From Escherichia coli (GTDB taxonomy: Bacteria; Pseudomonadota; Gammaproteobacteria; Enterobacterales; Enterobacteriaceae): a stretch of 11,574 nucleotides of DNA. A program made the position numbers and the translations under genes. Positions 2,868 to 11,574 of this stretch are shown piece by piece. Below the pieces are notes generated by a model, which was not told where the DNA came from, ran no database searches, and saw nothing but the letters and a program-made list of their open reading frames with translations. The stretch is taken from the NCBI RefSeq assembly GCF_003334315.1, contig NZ_QOWR01000085.1; one strand, written 5' to 3'. Numbering within the stretch: position 1 is the stretch's first letter; each line of letters begins with the position of its first letter.

Positions 2868-3263
2868 GTGGGATTAAAGAAAATCGTTATGTTGACTTTT
2901 TGGGGCGGTTTTGTTGCGGGATGCACACCTTTACACCCTTCAGATTGCCACAAAACTACTGCTACAGGTAGTTGCAGTTCAGGACGCTGGGATGATCAGG
3001 ATGAATGGGGGGCGCAAGCGCGGGGAATCAGAGCTGCAATTAATGCCAAACTTGATGAGCCGCATAACTGGAAAGGGAAAAAATGCAGGTTGCATATGGA
3101 ATTCTCTCAGGATGGCACGGCGTTAAAAATATCTACCAGTAACGGTGATAAAGCCTATTGCGAAGCGATAAAGTCCGCAGCTCATAAAGCCAAATTTCCG
3201 GCCTTCAACAATCCGGAAGTCTACAGAGATTTTCAGAAATCTGGCTTTGACATGCGAGGTTAG
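2868..3263 (+). CDS. Lipoprotein with TolA domain III-like domain, copy 2 (diverged paralogue)
   Basis: 131-aa ORF with a GTG start, 6 nt after the GAGGAG RBS. The signal peptide MGLKKIVMLTFWGGFVAG|C has its lipobox Cys at residue 19. The C-terminal ~80 aa aligns without gaps to copy 1 (about one third identical by hand), sharing GK.C.L.M, the C-x24-C spacing and PEVY..FQ. Confidence 0.8.
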   Translation: MGLKKIVMLTFWGGFVAGCTPLHPSDCHKTTATGSCSSGRWDDQDEWGAQARGIRAAINAKLDEPHNWKGKKCRLHMEFSQDGTALKISTSNGDKAYCEAIKSAAHKAKFPAFNNPEVYRDFQKSGFDMRG

Positions 3264-4688: not shown

Positions 4689-4825
4689 AATCTTAACTAC
4701 AATATGATTCATTTTGATGATTGTTTCATAAGGAACAGTGAAGTAAGATCTAAGAGGAGTTAAATTTTATACAGTATAATCATAATATTGCAGCAAGGTG
4801 GTTATAATTGAAAGAATATTTAGAT

Positions 4826-6283
4826 ATGAATACATCTCATGTAAGAGTTGTTACTCATATGTGTGGGTTCCTGGTTTGGCTCTATAGTCTTTCAATGTTG
4901 CCACCAATGGTTGTAGCATTGTTTTATAAAGAAAAAAGCCTGTTCGTTTTCTTTATAACTTTCGTTATATTTTTTTGCATTGGTGGCGGAGCGTGGTATA
5001 CAACTAAGAAATCTGGCATTCAATTACGTACCCGTGATGGGTTTATTATAATTGTAATGTTTTGGATTTTGTTTTCTGTTATTAGTGCATTCCCTTTATG
5101 GATTGACTCAGAACTTAATTTAACGTTCATTGATGCTCTGTTTGAAGGGGTTTCTGGAATAACAACAACAGGAGCAACTGTAATTGATGATGTTAGTTCA
5201 TTACCTCGGGCATATTTGTACTATCGGTCACAGTTAAATTTTATAGGTGGTTTAGGAGTTATTGTTCTGGCGGTTGCTGTATTGCCATTATTGGGTATTG
5301 GTGGTGCAAAGCTTTATCAGTCAGAAATGCCGGGGCCATTTAAGGATGACAAACTCACTCCCCGCCTGGCCGATACGTCACGGACACTGTGGATAACTTA
5401 TTCTTTATTAGGTATTGCTTGTATTGTCTGTTATAGACTTGCAGGAATGCCTTTGTTTGATGCTATTTGTCACGGGATTTCCACAGTTTCGCTTGGTGGT
5501 TTCTCAACTCATAGCGAGAGTATCGGATATTTTAATAACTATTTGGTTGAGCTGGTGGCTGGTTCTTTTTCCCTGCTATCGGCTTTCAACTTCACTCTTT
5601 GGTATATTGTTATTAGCAGGAAAACGATAAAACCTTTAATCAGAGATATTGAACTTCGTTTCTTTCTGTTAATAGCCTTAGGGGTGATCATTGTTACCTC
5701 TTTCCAGGTCTGGCATATAGGTATGTATGACTTGCATGGAAGTTTTATTCATTCGTTTTTTCTTGCCAGCTCCATGCTCACTGATAATGGTTTAGCTACG
5801 CAGGATTATGCAAGTTGGCCCACGCACACGATAGTGTTTTTGCTGTTGTCAAGTTTCTTTGGGGGATGTATAGGTTCAACTTGTGGTGGAATTAAGTCAC
5901 TTCGATTTCTTATACTTTTCAAACAAAGCAAACACGAGATAAATCAGCTTTCTCATCCCAGAGCGTTGTTGAGTGTAAATGTAGGAGGGAAGATAGTTAC
6001 AGATCGTGTAATGAGGTCTGTATGGAGTTTCTTTTTTCTTTATACTCTCTTCACGGTGTTTTTTATACTGGTGTTAAATGGTATGGGATATGATTTTCTT
6101 ACATCATTTGCAACAGTGGCTGCATGTATTAATAATATGGGATTAGGTTTTGGGGCTACTGCATCGTCATTCGGAGTGCTTAATGACATTGCAAAATGTT
6201 TAATGTGCATAGCTATGATTCTTGGTCGCCTTGAAATTTATCCTGTTATTATATTGTTTTCAGGTTTTTTTTGGCGCTCCTAA
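4826..6283 (+). CDS. trkG: Trk-system potassium uptake membrane protein TrkG
   Basis: 485 aa from the ATG at 4826 (MNTSHVRVVTHMCGFLVWLYSL...), which I recognise as Rac-prophage TrkG. It is polytopic, with repeated selectivity-filter-like Gly motifs (TTTGAT, LGGFS, CGGIKS, NMGLGFG). Spot counts of three 60-nt lines at 4981-5160 gave 25-48% GC (mean about 37%), against 48% for one flank line (6601-6660). An upstream TTG at 4808 has a better RBS (AAGGTGG, 6-nt spacing) and would give 491 aa. Confidence 0.9.
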   Translation: MNTSHVRVVTHMCGFLVWLYSLSMLPPMVVALFYKEKSLFVFFITFVIFFCIGGGAWYTTKKSGIQLRTRDGFIIIVMFWILFSVISAFPLWIDSELNLTFIDALFEGVSGITTTGATVIDDVSSLPRAYLYYRSQLNFIGGLGVIVLAVAVLPLLGIGGAKLYQSEMPGPFKDDKLTPRLADTSRTLWITYSLLGIACIVCYRLAGMPLFDAICHGISTVSLGGFSTHSESIGYFNNYLVELVAGSFSLLSAFNFTLWYIVISRKTIKPLIRDIELRFFLLIALGVIIVTSFQVWHIGMYDLHGSFIHSFFLASSMLTDNGLATQDYASWPTHTIVFLLLSSFFGGCIGSTCGGIKSLRFLILFKQSKHEINQLSHPRALLSVNVGGKIVTDRVMRSVWSFFFLYTLFTVFFILVLNGMGYDFLTSFATVAACINNMGLGFGATASSFGVLNDIAKCLMCIAMILGRLEIYPVIILFSGFFWRS

Positions 6284-6369
6284 TATATGGCTGATTTATA
6301 ATTGTGAGTTTAATATTATGTTGACTCACTCATTGATCCAATACCTAACTTTACCAGCAACCCCTCCGT

Positions 6370-6402
6370 CCCCAGTAGCACTGGCTGCTGGGGTGCGTTT
6401 TA
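6370..6402 (+). terminator. Rho-independent terminator after trkG
   Basis: CCCCAGTAGC-actg-GCTGCTGGGG forms a 10-bp stem with one G-U pair, followed by TGCGTTTTATT. Confidence 0.65.
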
Positions 6403-6420
6403 TTCATAAAGCAAGGCTGT

Positions 6421-7212
6421 ATGAGCGAGAAATTAAAGATAGTCTATCGCCCATTACAAGAATTGTCACCGTATGCGCACAACGCCAGGACGCACAGCCC
6501 TGAGCAGGTGGCACAACTGGTAGAAAGTATTAAGCAATTCGGCTGGACTAATCCGGTGCTGATTGACGAAAAGGGCGAAATTATTGCGGGTCACGGTCGT
6601 GTTATGGCGGCTGAAATGCTCAAAATGGATTCTGTTCCGGTCATTGTTCTGTCTGGCCTGACGGATGAGCAGAAAAAGGCGTACCGCCTGGCAGATAATC
6701 GCCTGCCGATGAATGCTGGCTGGGATGAAGATCTGTTGCGGATGGAGCTGTCGGACCTAATCAATGCTGATTTTGATGTCTCCCTGACAGGCTTCATCCC
6801 GACAGAAATTGATGAACTGTTGACGGATGTTTTGCCCGGTACAGGAAATGAGGAGGAGCCGTATACGACGAAAATTGATACGCCTGTTTATGAGCCGTCG
6901 GGCGGTAAACCGGATATCAGTGAACTGTACGACGATACGAAAACTCAGGAGCTGATCAGCCGGATACGTTCGGCGTCCCTTGAGCCTGATATTGAGAAAT
7001 TCCTCCTGTGTGCGGCAGAACGTCACACGGTGTTTAATTTCAGCAGAATTGCGGACTATTACGCTCACGCCCCCTCTGAAATTCAGTGTTTTTTCGAGGA
7101 GTCGGCGCTGGTGATCATTGATTATCAGCAGGCTATTGAAAATGGATTTGTCCGGATGACGCAGCGCATGGTGGAGATCATGCATGGTGGTGAGGAGGAG
7201 GAATATGCGTGA
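6421..7212 (+). CDS. ParB N-terminal (ParB/Srx-like) domain protein with an uncharacterised acidic C-terminal domain
   Basis: 263 aa. The N-terminal ~95 aa (YRPLQELSPYAHNARTHSPEQVAQLVESIKQFGWTNPVLIDEKGEIIAGHGRVMAA) shows the ParB-N fold pattern, with a GHGR box where ParB has GERR. The linker GWDEDLL...DFDVSLTGF..EIDELL is as I recall it from phage and plasmid ParB-methyltransferase fusions, but no SAM-methyltransferase motifs follow. It is probably the full-length form of K-12 Rac ynaK (from memory). Confidence 0.75.
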   Translation: MSEKLKIVYRPLQELSPYAHNARTHSPEQVAQLVESIKQFGWTNPVLIDEKGEIIAGHGRVMAAEMLKMDSVPVIVLSGLTDEQKKAYRLADNRLPMNAGWDEDLLRMELSDLINADFDVSLTGFIPTEIDELLTDVLPGTGNEEEPYTTKIDTPVYEPSGGKPDISELYDDTKTQELISRIRSASLEPDIEKFLLCAAERHTVFNFSRIADYYAHAPSEIQCFFEESALVIIDYQQAIENGFVRMTQRMVEIMHGGEEEEYA

Positions 7213-8137
7213 TGATTTTTGCGCCTTTATTCTGACTCACGGGCGACCGGACAAAGTTCTGACTTACCGGACGTTGCGTCGTGCTGGCTATACCGGGAAA
7301 ATTTTTATCGTTGTTGATGATGAAGATAAGACACGGAATCAGTACATGGCTGAATTTGGTGAACAGGTGCTGGTGTTTTCCAAAGCCGATATCGCCAGTC
7401 GTTTTGACGAAGCCGATAATTTCTGTGACCGCCGCTCAATTTTTTACGCCCGTAATGCCTGTTTCGACCTGGCAAAACTGGTCGGGTGTAAATACTTCAT
7501 TCAGCTCGATGATGATTATCACGAGTTCCAGTTTCGGGTGGATCGCAACTATGACCAGGCCTATTTTCCGATAAGGAAACTGGATGCGATCCTTTCTGAA
7601 ATGCTGGCGTACTACGAATCAATACCTGCTCTTTCCATCGCTATGTCGCAGGGCGGGGATTTTCTTGGTGACAATGGCGGCCATGCTTCGTGGGTGAAAC
7701 GCAAGGCAATGAACAGCTTTATCTGTTCGGTTGATCGACCGTTCTCATTCATGGGGCGCATTAACGAGGATGTGAATACGTACACGAATCTCGGTCGCTG
7801 TGGTGAATTGTTTATGACGATCGGTGCTGTCCAGTTAGGGCAGAAACAGACGCAGAAAAACAGCGGCGGAATGACCGAGCTGTATCTGGATTCCGGAACC
7901 TACGTTAAAAGTTTTTACTCCGTCATGTATGCGCCGTCGTGCGTAAAAATCTCACTGATGGGTGCCAGCCATAAACGCATTCACCATCAGGTCACCTGGA
8001 ACAACGCTGCAGTAAAAATCCTTCACGAAAAATACAGGAAGAAGACACCCTGCATATCAATGGGGGTGACAAATGATTCCGTATTCGAAAGTCGAGTCTC
8101 TGGCAGCGTGCCGGATGACTGCACAACAAATCGCTGA
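7205..8137 (+). CDS. GT-A fold (GT2-like) glycosyltransferase-like protein, soluble
   Basis: The start is taken at the ATG at 7205 (RBS GAGGAGGAGGAAT), which overlaps the ParB-like stop (ATGCGTGA). Motifs occur in GT-A order: FILTHGRPD, IFIVVDDED, ARNACFDLAKLVGCKYFIQLDDDY (DxD) and NEDVNTY. No TM segment is present. The last ~20 codons overlap the next ORF. Confidence 0.6.
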   Translation: MRDDFCAFILTHGRPDKVLTYRTLRRAGYTGKIFIVVDDEDKTRNQYMAEFGEQVLVFSKADIASRFDEADNFCDRRSIFYARNACFDLAKLVGCKYFIQLDDDYHEFQFRVDRNYDQAYFPIRKLDAILSEMLAYYESIPALSIAMSQGGDFLGDNGGHASWVKRKAMNSFICSVDRPFSFMGRINEDVNTYTNLGRCGELFMTIGAVQLGQKQTQKNSGGMTELYLDSGTYVKSFYSVMYAPSCVKISLMGASHKRIHHQVTWNNAAVKILHEKYRKKTPCISMGVTNDSVFESRVSGSVPDDCTTNR

Positions 8138-8324
8138 CGTTCTGGATGTTGATCTGAACCGACTGAAAGAAAATCGGGAAGCAATGACAGATTTTTATGC
8201 GGCCATCCGTAAGGGCAGAGCGAAAGGTGAAGCCGAGTTACGAGCGGCATTGTTTAAGCTTGCCAGAAAAGGGGATGCCTTTGCTCTGCGCGAACTACTC
8301 AGGGTGGATAAAAATCAGGACTAA
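8073..8324 (+). CDS. Small helix-turn-helix protein, possibly packaging-associated (TerS N-domain-like)
   Basis: 83-aa ORF with RBS GGGGGTG. It has an HTH-like segment (MTAQQIADVLDVDLNRLK) followed by AIRKGRAKGEAELRAALFKLARKGD, a pattern I associate with small phage DNA-binding and terminase-accessory proteins. The start is uncertain; an alternative ATG lies at 8115. Confidence 0.5.
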   Translation: MIPYSKVESLAACRMTAQQIADVLDVDLNRLKENREAMTDFYAAIRKGRAKGEAELRAALFKLARKGDAFALRELLRVDKNQD

Positions 8325-8327
8325 CTG

Positions 8328-9422
8328 ATGAGCAGACCGGACTGGGGGGCGTTGCAGCAGGAGTATATTGCTGAATACACCCGCTCCGGTATATCTCCGG
8401 TGGCATGGTGTGAAGCAAGGGGACTGAATTACGCAACAGCCCGTCGTTACATCAAAAAAACTCCGAAAAATGCGCAGACAGAAATGTGCAAAACTGCGCA
8501 AAAAAGTGCGCAGAAAAAATCTGCGCAGACTGCACAAAAGCGGAACGAAAAATCTCAGGAAAAAAAGCCAGTATTCGATGCGGGCCTGAATGAGGGCGAC
8601 GCGGAGGAATTTTCGTTCTGTCCCGATGAATTCGGCATTTCTGACCAGCAGGCTAAGTTTGCGATGCTTGTTGCTCAGGGTAAAAAGCCGACAGAGGCGT
8701 ACCGACTAGCCGGTTATGAGGGGCAAGGTGCGACAGCTAACAGCAACGCCAGTCGTATGCTTAGAAATGCCAGGGTTTTTCGCGCTATCAGCTACTTCCG
8801 CAATCAGTACCAGAAACGCTATACCGCAGACCTGGATTTACTAGTGAGTCAGTTGATGGCTATTGTCCTGGCCGACCCCAATCAGCTTGCACAATTTCGC
8901 CGTGTTAACTGCCGTTATTGCTGGGGCGAGAATCATCTCTACCAGTGGCGCGATATAGCAGAATTCGACAAGGCAGCGGCGCAGGCTTCCAGAGATGGCA
9001 AACCCGAACCGGAATATGGAGGCCTCGGCTTTGTTGATAACGCCATACCCAATCCGGACTGCCCGAAGTGCTGCGGTGAGGGAACGGGACAGCTTTATAT
9101 GGCTGATACCACTCTGCTTGATGGGGATGCGCGGCAATTATATGCAGGGGCAAAATTCGGAAAATTCGGCGTTGAGATCCTGCTGGAGGATAAGGCTGCC
9201 GCCCGGCGTGAATTGTTGCGTTTGTTTTCTGCTGGCGGGGCTTTATGTGCAGATAAACGGCTACAGGAACTGGAAATTGAACGGCGCAGAATGGAAAACC
9301 AGAAGCTGCGCAAAGAGATCGAAACGGTGGAAGATAATGAACATCCCCAGCCTGTGGCGATCAATATTAATGTGGTTGATGCCAGAGTAAGGAGTGATGA
9401 AGATGATCTCTCCGACGCTTAA
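8328..9422 (+). CDS. Terminase small subunit (Terminase_2 / P27-like core) with extra N-terminal HTH and a Cys4 insert
   Basis: 364 aa. The core FGISDQQAKFAMLVAQGKKPTEAYRLAGYEG...NASRMLRNARV is the typical TerS HTH region. Upstream lie a second HTH-like segment (GISPVAWCEARGLNYATARRYIKK) and a K/Q/A-rich repeat. CRYC (residues 198-201) and CPKC (residues 246-249) lie 44 aa apart. The gene lies directly upstream of TerL and overlaps it. Confidence 0.75.
   Translation: MSRPDWGALQQEYIAEYTRSGISPVAWCEARGLNYATARRYIKKTPKNAQTEMCKTAQKSAQKKSAQTAQKRNEKSQEKKPVFDAGLNEGDAEEFSFCPDEFGISDQQAKFAMLVAQGKKPTEAYRLAGYEGQGATANSNASRMLRNARVFRAISYFRNQYQKRYTADLDLLVSQLMAIVLADPNQLAQFRRVNCRYCWGENHLYQWRDIAEFDKAAAQASRDGKPEPEYGGLGFVDNAIPNPDCPKCCGEGTGQLYMADTTLLDGDARQLYAGAKFGKFGVEILLEDKAAARRELLRLFSAGGALCADKRLQELEIERRRMENQKLRKEIETVEDNEHPQPVAININVVDARVRSDEDDLSDA
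8471..8536 (+). repeat. Array of six TGCGCA-type palindromic hexamers inside terS
   Basis: TGCGCA occurs at 8471, 8495, 8507 and 8522. One-mismatch copies are TGTGCA at 8485 and TGCACA at 8531. Each is followed by (G/A)A, and spacings are 9-15 bp. Confidence 0.6.
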
Positions 9423-10704
9423 TGTGCCTCAGGCGCGATTTCTTTCAATGCCCCATAAATTTAAAGCCTATATTGCTGGTTTTGGCTCGGGCAAAATATG
9501 GGTTGGGTGTGGCGGCATATGCAAGGGGATTTGGGAGCATCCAGGTATAAATCAGGGATATTTTGCGCCAACGTATCCCCAAATTCGCGATATTTTTTAC
9601 CCTACAGTGGAAGAAGTTGCTGCTGACTGGGGATTGAACGTAAAAATTAATGAGGGAAATAAAGAGGTTCACTTTTATTACGGACGCCAGTATCGGGGAA
9701 CCACTATCTGCAGATCGATGGAGAAGCCACAAACGATCGTCGGTTTCAAAATTGGTAATGCGTTGGTGGATGAACTGGACATTTTGCCGAAGGAAAAAGC
9801 CAGAACGGCGTGGCGCAAGATAATTGCACGTATGCGTTATAAGATTGATGGACTTCGCAACGGTATTGACGTTACAACCACGCCGGAAGGATTCAAATTT
9901 GTCTACGAGCAGTTTGTTAAAGCCGTGCGTGAAAAAACAGAGCTGGCCTCACTGTATGGTCTGGTGCAGGCATCTACTTTCGATAATGAAAAGAACCTGC
10001 CAGCAGATTACATTCCTTCGCTTCTTGAATCATACCCTCCAGAGCTGATTAAAGCCTATCTTCGAGGACAGTTTACTAACCTGACAAGTGGTACTGTTTA
10101 CCATCAGTTTGACCGGAAACTGAATAATTGCGAAGAAGTGGAGCAGCCAGGGGAGCCGATTTATATTGGGATGGATTTTAACGTTGGAAAGATGGCGGGA
10201 ATCGTCCATGTGCTGCGTTTGGGGCTTCCATGTGCGGTAACTGAAATCATCAATGCCTACGATACGCCGGATATGATCCGCATCATTAAAGAACGCTTCT
10301 GGCTGTATGATGGGAATGATTACCGGAAAGTGAGGGAAATTTATATTTATCCAGATGCTTCCGGGGATTCCAGAAAATCAAGTAACGCAAGTACGACGGA
10401 TATAGCCCAGCTTAAGCAGGCTGGTTTTAACGTTGTGGTGAACAGCTCGAACCCGCCAGTAAAAGATCGCGTTAACTCAATGAATGCAATGTTCTGCAAT
10501 GCCAATGGTGAGCGTCGCTATAAAGTTAATGTGAAGCGTTGCCCGTTATATGCCGAATCTCTGGAGCAACAGGTCTGGGATGAGAAGGGGGAGCCTGATA
10601 AAAAATCTGGCAATGATCACCCGAATGATGCCGGAGGTTATTTCATCGTTAAGCAATTCCCTATTGTCAAACCGACCGGAAGAGTCACATCACTTCGGAT
10701 TTAA
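9403..10704 (+). CDS. Terminase large subunit
   Basis: Walker A AGFGSGKI, Walker B ALVDELD, and RNaseH-like nuclease Asp motifs (IGMDFNVG, YPDASGD, NDHPNDAGGY). The start is chosen at the ATG at 9403, 8 nt after AGGAG. ATG 9397 and GTG 9394 are alternatives. The gene overlaps the TerS stop at 9422. Confidence 0.85.
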   Translation: MISPTLNVPQARFLSMPHKFKAYIAGFGSGKIWVGCGGICKGIWEHPGINQGYFAPTYPQIRDIFYPTVEEVAADWGLNVKINEGNKEVHFYYGRQYRGTTICRSMEKPQTIVGFKIGNALVDELDILPKEKARTAWRKIIARMRYKIDGLRNGIDVTTTPEGFKFVYEQFVKAVREKTELASLYGLVQASTFDNEKNLPADYIPSLLESYPPELIKAYLRGQFTNLTSGTVYHQFDRKLNNCEEVEQPGEPIYIGMDFNVGKMAGIVHVLRLGLPCAVTEIINAYDTPDMIRIIKERFWLYDGNDYRKVREIYIYPDASGDSRKSSNASTTDIAQLKQAGFNVVVNSSNPPVKDRVNSMNAMFCNANGERRYKVNVKRCPLYAESLEQQVWDEKGEPDKKSGNDHPNDAGGYFIVKQFPIVKPTGRVTSLRI

Positions 10705-10706
10705 TT

Positions 10707-11126
10707 ATGGCTGATATATCAACACCCAACCTCGACTATAACGATATGCTGGAGGCGTGGGATATTAACGACGCACTGATGGGCGGTACGCTTGAAATGC
10801 GCAGGCAGGGGGAAAATTATCTCCCAAAATGGCCTAACGAAGATGAAGACGCTTATAAAAAACGCCTGTCTGTGGCTACGCTACTTCCTGTGTATGAAGA
10901 AAGCATCAAGCAAAATATTGGGCGCATATTTGCAGAGCCGACAGTATTGAGTGAGGAAACGCCGGCAAAAATCAGGGAATATGCAGAAAATATCGACATG
11001 GAGGGGAGCCGACTGGATGTGTGGGCGCAGCAATTTTTCAGCCTCGCATTTCAGTATGGTGTGGCACATGCGCTGGTGGACTACCCACGAACGGATATGA
11101 AAGAGATTCGTACAAAAGCCGGGTAA
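10707..11126 (+). pseudogene. Portal protein gene (DUF4055-like N-terminus), truncated by IS1 insertion
   Basis: The ORF starts 3 nt after TerL. Its N-terminal pattern (G..YLPKWPNE....Y..RL..A.L...YE.....IGRIF..P) resembles DUF4055-type portals as recalled. Only 139 codons remain, and the stop TAA (11124-11126) lies inside the IS1 terminal repeat GGTAATG. Native sequence ends at 11121. Confidence 0.6.
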
Positions 11127-11574
11127 TGACTCCAACTTATTGATAGTGTTTTATGTTCAGATAATGCCCGATGACTTTGTCATGCAGCTCCACCGATTTT
11201 GAGAACGACAGCGACTTCCGTCCCAGCCGTGCCAGGTGCTGCCTCAGATTCAGGTTATGCCGCTCAATTCGCTGCGTATATCGCTTGCTGATTACGTGCA
11301 GCTTTCCCTTCAGGCGGGATTCATACAGCGGCCAGCCATCCGTCATCCATATCACCACGTCAAAGGGTGACAGCAGGCTCATAAGACGCCCCAGCGTCGC
11401 CATAGTGCGTTCACCGAATACGTGCGCAACAACCGTCTTCCGGAGACTGTCATACGCGTAAAACAGCCAGCGCTGGCGCGATTTAGCCCCGACATAGCCC
11501 CACTGTTCGTCCATTTCCGCGCAGACGATGACGTCACTGCCCGGCTGTATGCGCGAGGTTACCGACTGCGGCCT
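11122..11574 (-). mobile_element. IS1 insertion sequence, partial (continues past the right edge)
   Basis: From 11122 the sequence matches IS1 read from its insB-proximal end (GGTAATGACTCCAACTTATTGATAGTGTTTTATGTTCAGATAATGCCCGATGAC...), as I remember it. The 23-bp terminal inverted repeat is at 11122-11144. The window ends just before the A6C frameshift site. Confidence 0.95.
11137..11574 (-). CDS. insB: IS1 transposase InsB reading frame (C-terminal 145 codons; 5' end outside the window)
   Basis: The reverse-strand translation reads [42 protein letters not shown]...HYLNIKHYQ*, identical to my memory of InsB. The frame stays open to the window edge. Confidence 0.9.

Follow-up and report, generated by a model that had tools for sequence, protein, structure and literature searches.

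A ParB-like protein and a glycosyltransferase (GT) of the TAGT family form an obligate gene pair in viruses of bacteria and archaea, and in Escherichia coli this pair heads the packaging operon of a Rac-like prophage. We analysed the pair in a stretch of 11,574 nucleotides of E. coli DNA (assembly GCF_003334315.1, contig NZ_QOWR01000085.1), hereafter the window. Our favoured but tentative reading, whose chance we put somewhat short of even, is that the pair carries out ParB-assisted, late-expressed glycosylation of phage DNA, in parallel with the ParB-methyltransferase fusions and the ParB-dependent T-dioxygenases. The C-terminal domain (CTD) of the ParB-like protein appears to be the true partner of the GT.

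A translationally coupled gene pair

The features of the region, all on the plus strand, were as follows.

6421..7212, +, full-length ynaK-type ParB-like protein (ORF; 263 aa, pI 4.5; Pfam ParB_N; PGAP 'ParB/Srx family N-terminal domain-containing protein')
6421..6705, +, ParB/Srx (ParB-CTPase fold) N-domain, aa 1-95, with Box I N21-x-R23, Box II G57-H-G-R60 (6589-6600) and D92-N93
6718..6822, +, helical linker GWDEDLL...LTGF...EIDELL, aa 100-134, common to ParB-methyltransferase fusions (AF2 helices)
6862..6912, +, invariant motif Y-T/S-x-K-x3-P-x-Y-E-P-x4-P, aa 148-164, in a segment of predicted disorder
6916..7185, +, conserved helical CTD, aa 166-255, FLxxAAxRHxVF...IAxYYAH...QxLMExSALVIIDxxxAIExG, putative specific GT partner domain
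7192..7212, +, translational-coupling junction: Shine-Dalgarno-like GAGGAGGAGGAA at 7192-7203, GT ATG at 7205-7207, ParB-like TGA at 7210-7212
7205..8137, +, TAGT-family GT-A glycosyltransferase (ORF, 310 aa; Pfam PF20691, phrog_842)
7244-7246, +, GT catalytic R14, invariant in alignments
7508-7516, +, GT DDD 102-104, with D102-D104 invariant in alignments
7763-7777, +, GT NEDVN 187-191, with N187 and D189 invariant in alignments
8073..8324, +, TerS-like ORF, 83 aa, overlapping the GT 3' end (phrog_309, E=8e-23)
8328-9422, +, terminase small subunit (Pfam Terminase_2, Terminase_6N and Terminase_6C for both terminase subunits)
9394-10704, +, terminase large subunit (same Pfam families for both subunits)

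Both ORFs and their stop/start coupling, as given in a preliminary description of this DNA, are real. Viruses infecting four bacterial phyla and haloarchaea carry homologues with 39-48% identity, and this conservation across domains of life ruled out chance ORFs. The stop of the ParB-like gene and the start of the GT gene share 8 nt (ATGCGTGA), and a purine-rich Shine-Dalgarno-like run (GAGGAGGAGGAA) lies ahead of the overlap. A stop/start overlap of 4-29 nt was kept in phi jlb1, HHTV-2, c5, NTR1, the Porphyromonas phage and two further loci (L090 and L092). The GT ORF in the ORF listing extends to an ATG at 7184, while PGAP and the homologue alignments favoured the start at 7205. The ParB-like protein was matched over its whole length by phrog_620 (E=8.5e-91).

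The glycosyltransferase belongs to the TAGT family

The GT matched the Pfam TAGT model (TET-associated glycosyltransferase, PF20691) over aa 8-222 with 121.1 bits, well above the cutoff of 27.5 (E=7.6e-35), and phrog_842 with E=1e-103. The motifs FILTHGRPD, IVVDDED, QLDDDY and NEDVN, which had been read earlier as those of a GT-A enzyme, were all present, and the R...DDD...ED(Y/F) catalytic motif is intact, with EDV as its third element. The proposed GT-A fold was borne out by Foldseek, whose top PDB matches were all GT-A enzymes (GalS1, SpsA, TarS, glycogenin), with structure models of moderate quality built on alignments of at least 54% identity (GT pLDDT 67.6). The GT has no sequence relative in the PDB and no NCBIfam model. 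Beyond the Pfam model lies a conserved C-terminal extension of about 60 aa (aa 222-281), followed by a tail (286-310) that is not conserved. The family comprises more than 8000 proteins, and in one relative the GT is fused to a SAM methyltransferase domain, as in hypermodification pathways.

The enzyme is soluble, as the preliminary description had stated, with no transmembrane segment (maximum 19-residue Kyte-Doolittle hydropathy 1.08). No GtrA/GtrB-like ORFs were found in the window, and Gtr-type O-antigen seroconversion was ruled out on these two grounds. The one membrane protein near the pair was TrkG.

The scope of the TAGT family includes the T6 second-glucose enzyme, 5hmC glycosyltransferases from metaviromes and animal GREB1 (PMC13390438; bioRxiv 10.1101/2023.12.21.572611; PMC7968844). 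In T6-like phages, attachment of the second glucose to glucosyl-hmC is attributed to their TAGT (PMC13390438), and JGT-like phage GT-A enzymes with the R...DDD...ED motif glycosylate 5hmC (bioRxiv 10.1101/2023.12.21.572611). The TAGT domain of GREB1 acts on a protein, O-GlcNAcylating ERalpha (PMC7968844). The window GT is like these enzymes and the trypanosome JGT in Pfam match, GT-A fold and catalytic motif, and like the phage members it is soluble and phage-encoded. It differs from them in its ~60-aa extension past the Pfam model and in being always paired with a CTD protein. The T4-like TAGT of Aeromonas phage 65, in contrast, scored higher against the Pfam model (210 bits) and had no CTD gene upstream. 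PGAP names the GT 'GREB1-related protein', and Iyer et al. 2013 is cited for ParB homologues in DNA-modification gene clusters in passages of PMC8256090 and PMC13229309; the pair, described earlier as essentially unstudied, had thus not gone wholly unnoticed.

A ParB-like protein with a conserved C-terminal domain

Both the ParB_N HMM match and the fold place the N-domain in the ParB/Srx superfamily. All three NTP-binding motifs (Box I N-x-R, Box II GxxR, Box III D/E-N) occur in the window protein, giving a predicted NTP site. Across 123 relatives, R60 was retained in 81% and N93 in 80%. The loss of the Box II arginine in ~19% of family representatives, together with the absence of the entire N-domain from the Vibrio and L095 versions, suggests that a ParB NTP switch is not essential to the system.

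The GHGR box (aa 57-60) and the GWDEDLL, LTGF and EIDELL linker were found as previously described, with AF2 helices at 103-115, 120-123 and 127-134. The assignment of this N-domain and linker to the module of methyltransferase fusions also held: phrog_498 'DNA methyltransferase' aligned to aa 3-141 (E=1e-50) and PADLOC MTase_II (PDLC03229) to aa 10-144 (E=2e-38). The first ~140 residues (aa 3-144) are thus homologous to those of the ParB-N6/N4 DNA methyltransferase fusions known from plasmids and from lambdoid and P1-like phages, whereas a new CTD, together with a GT encoded by its own gene, takes the place of the methyltransferase domain and its SAM motif. Such fusions are also located ahead of packaging genes.

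The N-terminal fold and Boxes I, II and III are shared with the CTP-gated clamps of partition ParB, KorB and Noc. The window protein departs from these clamps by its acidity and by lacking both an HTH or parS-binding domain and a ParA partner. No HTH Pfam match or DNA-binding domain was detected in it, parA was absent from the window and from the related loci viewed, and the TIGR00180 match covered aa 11-94 only, with 38.5 bits against a cutoff of 58.45. A canonical partition ParB was ruled out. The partners are acidic throughout the family (median pI 4.65), with GT pI values of 5.4 to 9.5.

The C-terminal part had been described as an acidic ~150-aa domain without SAM motifs. It is indeed acidic (pI 4.4) and lacks such motifs, but it is not a filler in place of a methyltransferase. 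The CTD is the most conserved part of the system, a very highly conserved and previously undescribed domain that had no Pfam, PDB or fold match and formed about 1200 clusters at 50% identity. In the Vibrio jumbo phages the CTD occurs alone, without the ParB N-domain. Ahead of it, Y148, P155 and Y157 were invariant in 123/123 representatives and P164 was kept in 122/123, in a region of low model confidence (pLDDT <50 at residues 136-170, AF2).

Several hidden functions of this part were rejected. A methyltransferase was ruled out, with no methyltransferase Pfam or HMM match and no SAM, DPPY or FxGxG motif. A metal-dependent hydroxylase making the acceptor was ruled out as well, since its possible metal ligands differ among relatives: E200 is variable, and in place of H216 phage c5 has N and the Porphyromonas phage F-N. 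A serine or threonine acceptor in the YEP[ST]G motif was also ruled out, since K, V or G stands there in many relatives.

The two genes are obligate neighbours in diverse viruses

Co-occurrence of the two genes in related viruses had been set beforehand as a test of the pairing. CTD and GT were adjacent in all 85 loci fetched by GT (85/85) and in all 79 fetched by CTD (79/79). The two are therefore obligate neighbours, with reciprocal co-occurrence without exception among the loci fetched, which span phages of E. coli, Lactobacillus, Nocardia, Porphyromonas and Vibrio and a Haloarcula virus. Their identities to the window proteins were correlated across loci (r=0.88), and among 27 diverse loci they were the sole two gene families common to all. 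Between the E. coli prophage and the Lactobacillus, Nocardia and Haloarcula viruses, the GT was 39-48% and the partner 32-42% identical, suggesting an acceptor common to all these hosts.

The pair lies directly 5' of four unrelated terminase types (Terminase_6N, TerL_ATPase, GpA and a Porphyromonas type), and in the Vibrio jumbo phages it stands among primase, exonuclease and helicase genes in a replication module. The ParB-like and GT genes of Cluster O mycobacteriophages have an unrelated context.

No source of a hydroxylated acceptor was found

In the literature surveyed, the phage DNA glycosylations described start from a hydroxylated pyrimidine (5hmC, 5hmU or 5hoC). We looked for enzymes that could supply one. 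The complete 31.8-kb genome of phage c5 contained no TET/JBP or thymidylate-synthase family at E<3e-5, and no homologue of either was annotated in the complete 38.3-kb genome of phi jlb1, whose unannotated early genes all encode fewer than 120 aa, or in the 42 kb viewed of a Rac-like prophage. Five Pfam-annotated neighbourhoods (±10 kb or contig extent) likewise had none. In seven further large loci TET_JBP was not among the 25 commonest Pfam families listed, a weak absence; that of TET_JBP is firm for phage c5 and the loci with precomputed Pfam annotation only. The usual TAGT acceptor thus appears to be missing from the genomes and neighbourhoods examined, where we found no nearby acceptor source of the kind that goes with TAGT enzymes (5mYOX, dCMP/dUMP hydroxymethylase or a first GT). 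This sets the window GT family apart from the characterised TAGT enzymes, for which hydroxymethyl-pyrimidine or glucosyl-hmC is the substrate. Pyle et al. judged GT contigs without an adjoining 5mYOX or ThyS less likely to act on DNA, and O'Toole et al. reported thousands of 5mYOX-like sequences without a TET/JBP Pfam annotation (PMC13229309).

Proposed mechanism

The glycosylation of phage DNA is suggested by the membership of the GT in TAGT, the GT-A family whose phage members glycosylate DNA, and by a ParB-like N-module that equals that of the ParB-methyltransferase fusions, in a layout that matches ParB176. The strict linkage of the two genes, their place ahead of unrelated terminases or among replication genes, and the relative with a GT-methyltransferase fusion also speak for it. 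The acidity of the partners, which have no HTH, the natural loss of the N-domain in some versions and the protein target of GREB1 speak against it. The pair would constitute an obligate two-component, late-expressed nucleic-acid glycosylation module, in which the TAGT-type GT-A enzyme may draw sugar from a host nucleotide-sugar via its DxD/metal site. Translational coupling would supply the ParB-like protein in fixed proportion, and the invariant CTD would dock onto the GT in a physical complex. The ParB/Srx NTP-binding N-domain may have an accessory part, as a clamp that keeps the GT on replicated phage dsDNA or a switch that activates it there, just before packaging. The sugar mark could then protect the packaged genome against nuclease attack when the phage enters its next host. 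DNA as the acceptor, the atom modified, the sugar used and the protective mark are all parts of this model that we infer.

A close parallel is 5mYOX176/ParB176 (O'Toole et al. 2026, PMC13229309), in which ParB176 activates its T-dioxygenase on dsDNA. ParB176 has an NTP domain, short helices, a disordered linker, a CTD and no DNA-binding domain, and it is encoded beside its cognate, post-replicative DNA-modifying enzyme; the window protein has the same layout in its AF2 model and the same adjacency (85/85 and 79/79 loci). The NTP-site residues seem dispensable in both, by mutation in ParB176 (PMC13229309) and by natural loss in the window family. The partner enzyme is a dioxygenase there and a glycosyltransferase here, the CTD can occur without the ParB N-domain in the window family, and the likeness is one of domain layout. 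A second parallel is DpdB, which has a ParB fold and a helical CTD and assists DpdA on DNA in 7-deazaguanine modification (PMC10164549). Its C-terminal domain is likened to the window CTD by layout, and DpdA-DpdB differs in its transglycosylase chemistry and its location in a bacterial defence island rather than a phage late operon (PMC10164549). The earlier idea that the ParB-like protein recruits the GT to DNA is consistent with the TAGT assignment and with the precedents of the T-dioxygenases and DpdA/DpdB, but less so with the lack of an enzyme making hydroxymethyl-pyrimidines in the genomes examined.

One form of the DNA-glycosylation reading would do without such an enzyme: the CTD-GT pair may glycosylate phage dsDNA directly, at a base that is canonical or carries no more than a methyl group. 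In that case the CTD would recognise the base or form one part of a composite active site, with the ParB N-domain as an optional NTP-gated loader. We consider this specific form unlikely. We know of no precedent for an enzyme that glycosylates a canonical DNA base directly.

Alternative acceptors

The main alternative, which we also regard as unlikely, is that the GT glycosylates a phage or host protein, such as the terminase, the portal, a packaging factor or a host defence protein, and that the ParB-like protein is a substrate adaptor. The protein-directed activity of GREB1 (PMC7968844), the unavailability of a hydroxylated base as acceptor in c5 and phi jlb1, the packaging genes next to the pair, and the acidic partner without a DNA-binding domain all argue for it. 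However, no other gene family accompanies the pair throughout, the neighbouring terminases come from unrelated families, and the pair of the Vibrio jumbo phages resides in a replication module away from structural genes. It is also hard to name a host protein that E. coli, Lactobacillus, Nocardia, Porphyromonas and Haloarcula would all offer as target.

It is improbable that the ParB-like protein is itself the acceptor, glycosylated at Y148 or Y157 in a glycogenin-like manner to yield a glycoprotein with a packaging or anti-defence role. Such a role would fit two tyrosines invariant in 123/123 representatives within predicted disorder, glycogenin among the structural matches, and genes that are obligately adjacent and translationally coupled. 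The glycogenin match, however, reflects generic GT-A similarity (TM about 0.3), an interface between two proteins or one forming a composite active site would be expected to show the same invariance, and the S/T after YEP is not conserved. Self-glycosylation leaves both the ParB fold and the link to DNA-metabolism genes unexplained.

A classical TAGT role is similarly improbable. Here the acceptor would be 5hmC, 5hmU or a DNA-borne sugar, made by an unrecognised or distant enzyme or present on the DNA of other phages only. The characterised phage TAGT members have this activity (PMC13390438), an unrecognised enzyme could belong to the 5mYOX-like sequences of O'Toole et al. that lack TET/JBP annotation, and the census at the seven large loci covered the 25 commonest families listed. 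Against it stand the complete c5 and phi jlb1 genomes without a candidate enzyme and a CTD with no conserved metal-ligand pattern. We know of no hydroxymethyl-pyrimidine synthesis in E. coli and Lactobacillus hosts.

Still less probable is that the GT glycosylates an NTP or signalling nucleotide bound by the ParB/Srx domain (perhaps disarming an immune signal of the host), or that the pair has a non-catalytic role in packaging, given that the N-domain is dispensable in some lineages, whereas CTD and GT are invariant, that the GT catalytic residues are invariant, and that no PADLOC or defence-system link was found for the pair.

Significance of the pair

The window GT represents a large subfamily of TAGT that was not found with a hydroxylase in the loci examined and is locked to a near-invariant CTD on a ParB-like protein. 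If DNA is modified, the pair would define a new acceptor chemistry and a second class of ParB-assisted DNA-modifying enzyme, the first having been shown in 2026. If a canonical base is the acceptor, this would be the first DNA glycosylation without a 5-hydroxymethyl or 5-hydroxy precursor, a chemistry that many temperate phages of bacteria and archaea would share and that about one complete E. coli genome in six would encode. If a protein is modified, viruses of bacteria and archaea would have in the pair their own counterpart of GREB1. The system should be easy to test, as two genes suffice and host nucleotide-sugars are apparently used, and it is relevant to phage therapy, to restriction and CRISPR evasion, and to possible new DNA-labelling enzymes. 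Our literature search returned nothing relevant on ynaK, on ParB with glucosyl-HMC and terminase, or on Ld25A with ParB.

The pair in Rac-like prophages of E. coli

Rac-like prophages with the pair were present in 867 of 5426 complete E. coli genomes (~one in six). The pair had been placed just upstream of the terminase. It does precede the terminase genes, but the 83-aa TerS-like ORF at 8073-8324 lies between the GT and the terminase small subunit. This ORF was kept ~860 nt past the GT start in eight loci, seven of which carry GTs 73-82% identical to the window GT.

Remnants of both genes had been attributed to K-12 as ynaK and ydaY. K-12 keeps ynaK alone from the pair, as an 87-aa protein. 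A GT remnant in ydaY was ruled out by position: in the intact prophage ydaY is the gene between the tail tube and the tape measure, and a deletion has moved it beside ynaK.

Gene content of the prophage region

The window comes from a Rac-like lambdoid prophage of E. coli and covers its late region, with the genes in the following order.

Features of the window
First in gene order: DUF1367, DUF1364 and a Q-like gene
2289-2717 and 2868-3263, + strand: two TolA-C-domain candidate morons, after the Q-like gene and before the lysis cassette
Between the TolA-type ORFs and trkG: holin, lysozyme, Rz
4808-6283: trkG, after Rz
6421-7212, + strand: ParB-like gene, after trkG
7205-8137, + strand: glycosyltransferase (GT) gene, overlapping the ParB-like gene
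8073-8324, + strand: 83-aa ORF matching phrog_309 (a TerS PHROG; E=8e-23), overlapping the last ~21 GT codons
8328-9422, + strand: TerS
9394-10704: TerL
10707-11126: DUF4055-type portal ORF, interrupted by an IS1-type element

The stop codon of the ParB-like gene (TGA, 7210-7212) and the start codon of the GT gene (ATG, 7205-7207) overlap within ATGCGTGA, and a strong SD-like purine run precedes the GT start at 7192-7203. The GT starts at 7184 in a mechanical ORF list; the start at 7205 is backed by PGAP and all homologue alignments. This overlap and the other sequence features in the preliminary description were all found where it had placed them. The 83-aa ORF keeps its position in closer relatives, whose GTs are 73-82% identical.

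The IS1-type element (11137-11574 in the window, with an InsB-like ORF on the minus strand at 11137-11514) cuts the portal gene ~420 nt past its start, so virions cannot come from this prophage copy, even though neither the terminase genes nor the ParB-like/GT pair is disrupted. TerS is unusually long (364 aa), with a K/Q/A-rich low-complexity insert at ~aa 44-80, and the final 29 nt of its gene overlap the TerL start. The two TolA-type ORFs are paralogues; the annotation of a related genome calls them TolA and TolA C-terminal domain proteins, and as candidate morons they may hinder Tol-dependent entry of phages or colicins. At 6370-6393 (+ strand), 87 nt past trkG and 28 nt ahead of the ParB-like start, a GC-rich 10-bp hairpin with a T-run behind it looks like a terminator of the trkG moron inside the late operon, in which case readthrough by Q-antiterminated transcription would be required.

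The ParB-like C-terminal domain and the GT form a module

In phage records searched by tblastn, GT homologues 39-47% identical to the window protein were found in Lactobacillus phages phi jlb1, c5, phiLdb and JNU_P11, Nocardia phage NTR1, Haloarcula virus HHTV-2 and Vibrio jumbo phages, and homologues 27-39% identical in Lactobacillus phages Ld17 and LL-Ku and Porphyromonas phages. In each case viewed, a full-length ParB-like homologue with the C-terminal domain (CTD) lay directly upstream of the GT, with overlapping stop and start codons. Every one of 85 loci containing a GT homologue, 80 of which are IMG/VR contigs, has the CTD upstream (at a distance of 3.2 kb in one locus), and a GT directly followed the CTD in all 79 contigs with sufficient sequence among 80 fetched by a CTD profile. 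In the related viruses covered, the two genes were always found together. Across 38 diverse loci, the identity of the GT to its window counterpart was correlated with that of the CTD (r=0.88), and no third gene family was common to 27 diverse loci. Judged from these sequences, the CTD and GT form an obligate module.

The terminase lies directly downstream of the pair in phi jlb1, c5, NTR1 and a Porphyromonas phage, and ~3 kb downstream in HHTV-2. The neighbouring terminases are of unrelated families: Terminase_6N in the window, and lambda GpA or TerL_ATPase in other loci. Vibrio jumbo phage pv27 encodes the CTD by itself, as a protein of 139 aa (54% identity to the window CTD, E=8e-36) that directly precedes the GT, and primase, exonuclease and helicase genes surround the pair; locus L095 is a second stand-alone case. 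In a metagenomic phage with the pair (L092, 17837-20316; L093, 8659-11138), four consecutive GT2-family glycosyltransferase genes right after the capsid gene resemble actinophage virion-glycosylation cassettes.

Domain structure of the two proteins

The ParB-like protein was claimed to share its N-domain and linker with ParB-methyltransferase fusions, and aa 3-144 indeed match a PHROG of phage 'DNA methyltransferase' type (E=1e-50) as well as the PADLOC model for type II methyltransferases (E=2e-38). Beyond aa 144 there was no HMM match; this remainder is acidic (pI 4.4) and lacks a SAM motif, as described. An AF2 model (pLDDT 68) predicts four parts.

Predicted parts of the ParB-like protein (AF2 model)
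aa 1-95: ParB/Srx domain
aa 103-134: short helices
aa 136-170: disordered stretch
After the disordered stretch: helical CTD

ParB176, activator of a phage thymine dioxygenase, has been described with the same layout, and it too has no DNA-binding domain (PMC13229309).

By sequence comparison, no other part of the system is as conserved as the CTD. When 1.84 billion representatives were searched with phmmer (query aa 146-263), 1180 CTD clusters were found, in which the CTD was always C-terminal, usually behind one ParB-N domain, sometimes alone and once behind two (P0267, 433 aa, with tandem ParB-N domains). Among 123 full-length representatives, Y148, P155, Y157, R201, A211, D234, A238 and G242 were 100% invariant and H202, Y214, Q222, E226 and S228 at least 98% kept; the ParB Box II arginine was kept in only 81%, being replaced in NTR1 and others. 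The ParB-like partners are acidic (median pI 4.65).

The GT is clearly a member of Pfam PF20691, 'TET-associated glycosyltransferase' (TAGT; 121 bits, cutoff 27.5), a family of more than 8000 sequences at E<=1e-5, and in some genomes it carries the PGAP name 'GREB1-related protein'. Its structural model matched only GT-A glycosyltransferases in a PDB search, which supports the predicted GT-A fold, and no hydrophobic segment was found, in keeping with a soluble enzyme. The catalytic-motif residues R14, D102-D104 and N187-E-D189 are intact, and invariant in alignments from E. coli through the haloarchaeal virus. Because homologues of other taxa stop at about aa 285, residues 286-310 of the E. 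coli GT form an extension specific to its lineage. Contig IMGVR_UViG_3300047160_004028 (L081, 10001-11716) encodes a TAGT homologue that ends in a fused class-I SAM methyltransferase domain (aa 421-509); there the ParB-like gene lies 3.2 kb upstream rather than adjoining.

Search for an acceptor-making enzyme

Characterised phage TAGT enzymes need a hydroxyl supplied by other enzymes. Glycosylation of 5hmC in DNA has been shown for JGT-like GT-A enzymes of phages that carry the R...DDD...EDY/F motif (bioRxiv 10.1101/2023.12.21.572611), and the T6-type member of the TAGT family is credited with adding a second glucose onto glucosyl-5hmC (PMC13390438). Unlike the window GT, the T4-like TAGT of Aeromonas phage 65, a phage whose lineage uses hydroxymethyl-cytosine, is not accompanied by a CTD gene.

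No TET_JBP or thymidylate-synthase family was found in the complete 31.8-kb genome of c5 at E<3e-5, and no acceptor-making enzyme is annotated in the complete 38.3-kb genome of phi jlb1, whose unannotated early genes are shorter than 120 aa. Nor did one appear in 42 kb of a Rac-like prophage or in the precomputed Pfam annotations of five neighbourhoods (±10 kb or full contig extent). Among 145 ORFs of seven further loci, the commonest families were TAGT, ParB_N and terminases; with only 25 families listed, this census is weak evidence on acceptor-making enzymes. Pyle et al. set aside the ~65% of GT-bearing contigs that had no nearby 5mYOX or ThyS (bioRxiv 10.1101/2023.12.21.572611). The 1.4-kb gap before the pair in phi jlb1 (L174, 11350-12746) holds no long ORF or annotated gene; short reverse-frame translations there resemble tRNA T-arm sequences, so tRNA genes or a packaging site may lie in it.

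Proposed role

The best-supported reading, to which we give slightly less than an even chance, is a late-expressed system that would glycosylate phage DNA with ParB assistance, ahead of packaging. The CTD would be a GT-docking or co-catalytic element and the ParB N-domain an accessory NTP-dependent loader or switch. The preliminary description had the ParB-like protein recruiting the GT to DNA; its observation stands, and its interpretation as DNA sugar modification is supported in part. Within this reading, direct sugar addition to a canonical or methylated base is unlikely and, if true, would be new chemistry.

The family to which the GT belongs, the analogies with ParB-methyltransferases and ParB-dioxygenases and the precedent of DpdA/DpdB (PMC10164549) argue for a DNA acceptor, as do the relative fused to a SAM methyltransferase domain and the placement of the pair ahead of unrelated terminases and in the replication module of jumbo phages. 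High conservation across viruses of very different hosts also calls for a universal acceptor. Against DNA stand the lack of any acceptor-making enzyme found, the acidic partner without a DNA-binding domain, the apparently dispensable ParB NTP site and, by analogy, animal GREB1, whose GT domain O-GlcNAcylates a protein (PMC7968844). The GREB1 case favours protein glycosylation, which we consider rather improbable. Partner or self glycosylation at the invariant tyrosines of the ParB-like protein has a low probability, and so does a classical hm-base role, which would need a hidden hydroxylase; other roles take up the rest.

Relation to known systems and prevalence

Both proteins belong to known superfamilies. 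As cited in later papers, Iyer et al. 2013 saw homologues of ParB in gene clusters for phage DNA modification and proposed that the modifying machinery is directed by ParB (PMC8256090, PMC13229309); in 2026 a modifying enzyme was shown to be activated by a ParB-like protein (PMC13229309). Three features seem not to have been described before: a TAGT subfamily that does not depend on a hydroxylase, its obligate pairing with one specific and nearly invariant CTD for which ParB-N is dispensable, and the abundance of the pair in E. coli prophages.

Of 5426 complete E. coli genomes, 1607 contain the 2-kb stretch 6300-8330, 867 of these with 80% or more of it; it is also present in 10 deposited phage records. 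Two remnants had been suggested for K-12; ynaK (87 aa) proved to be the sole one. In intact prophages ydaY lies between the tail tube and tape measure genes, and in K-12 a deletion that took the GT, terminase and head genes brought it beside ynaK. In the Rac-like prophage of E. coli ST2747, a nin-region cargo island (L001, 9518-13017) has a gene for a Dcm-like C5 cytosine methyltransferase on one strand and genes for an O-methyltransferase and an ATP-binding protein on the other.
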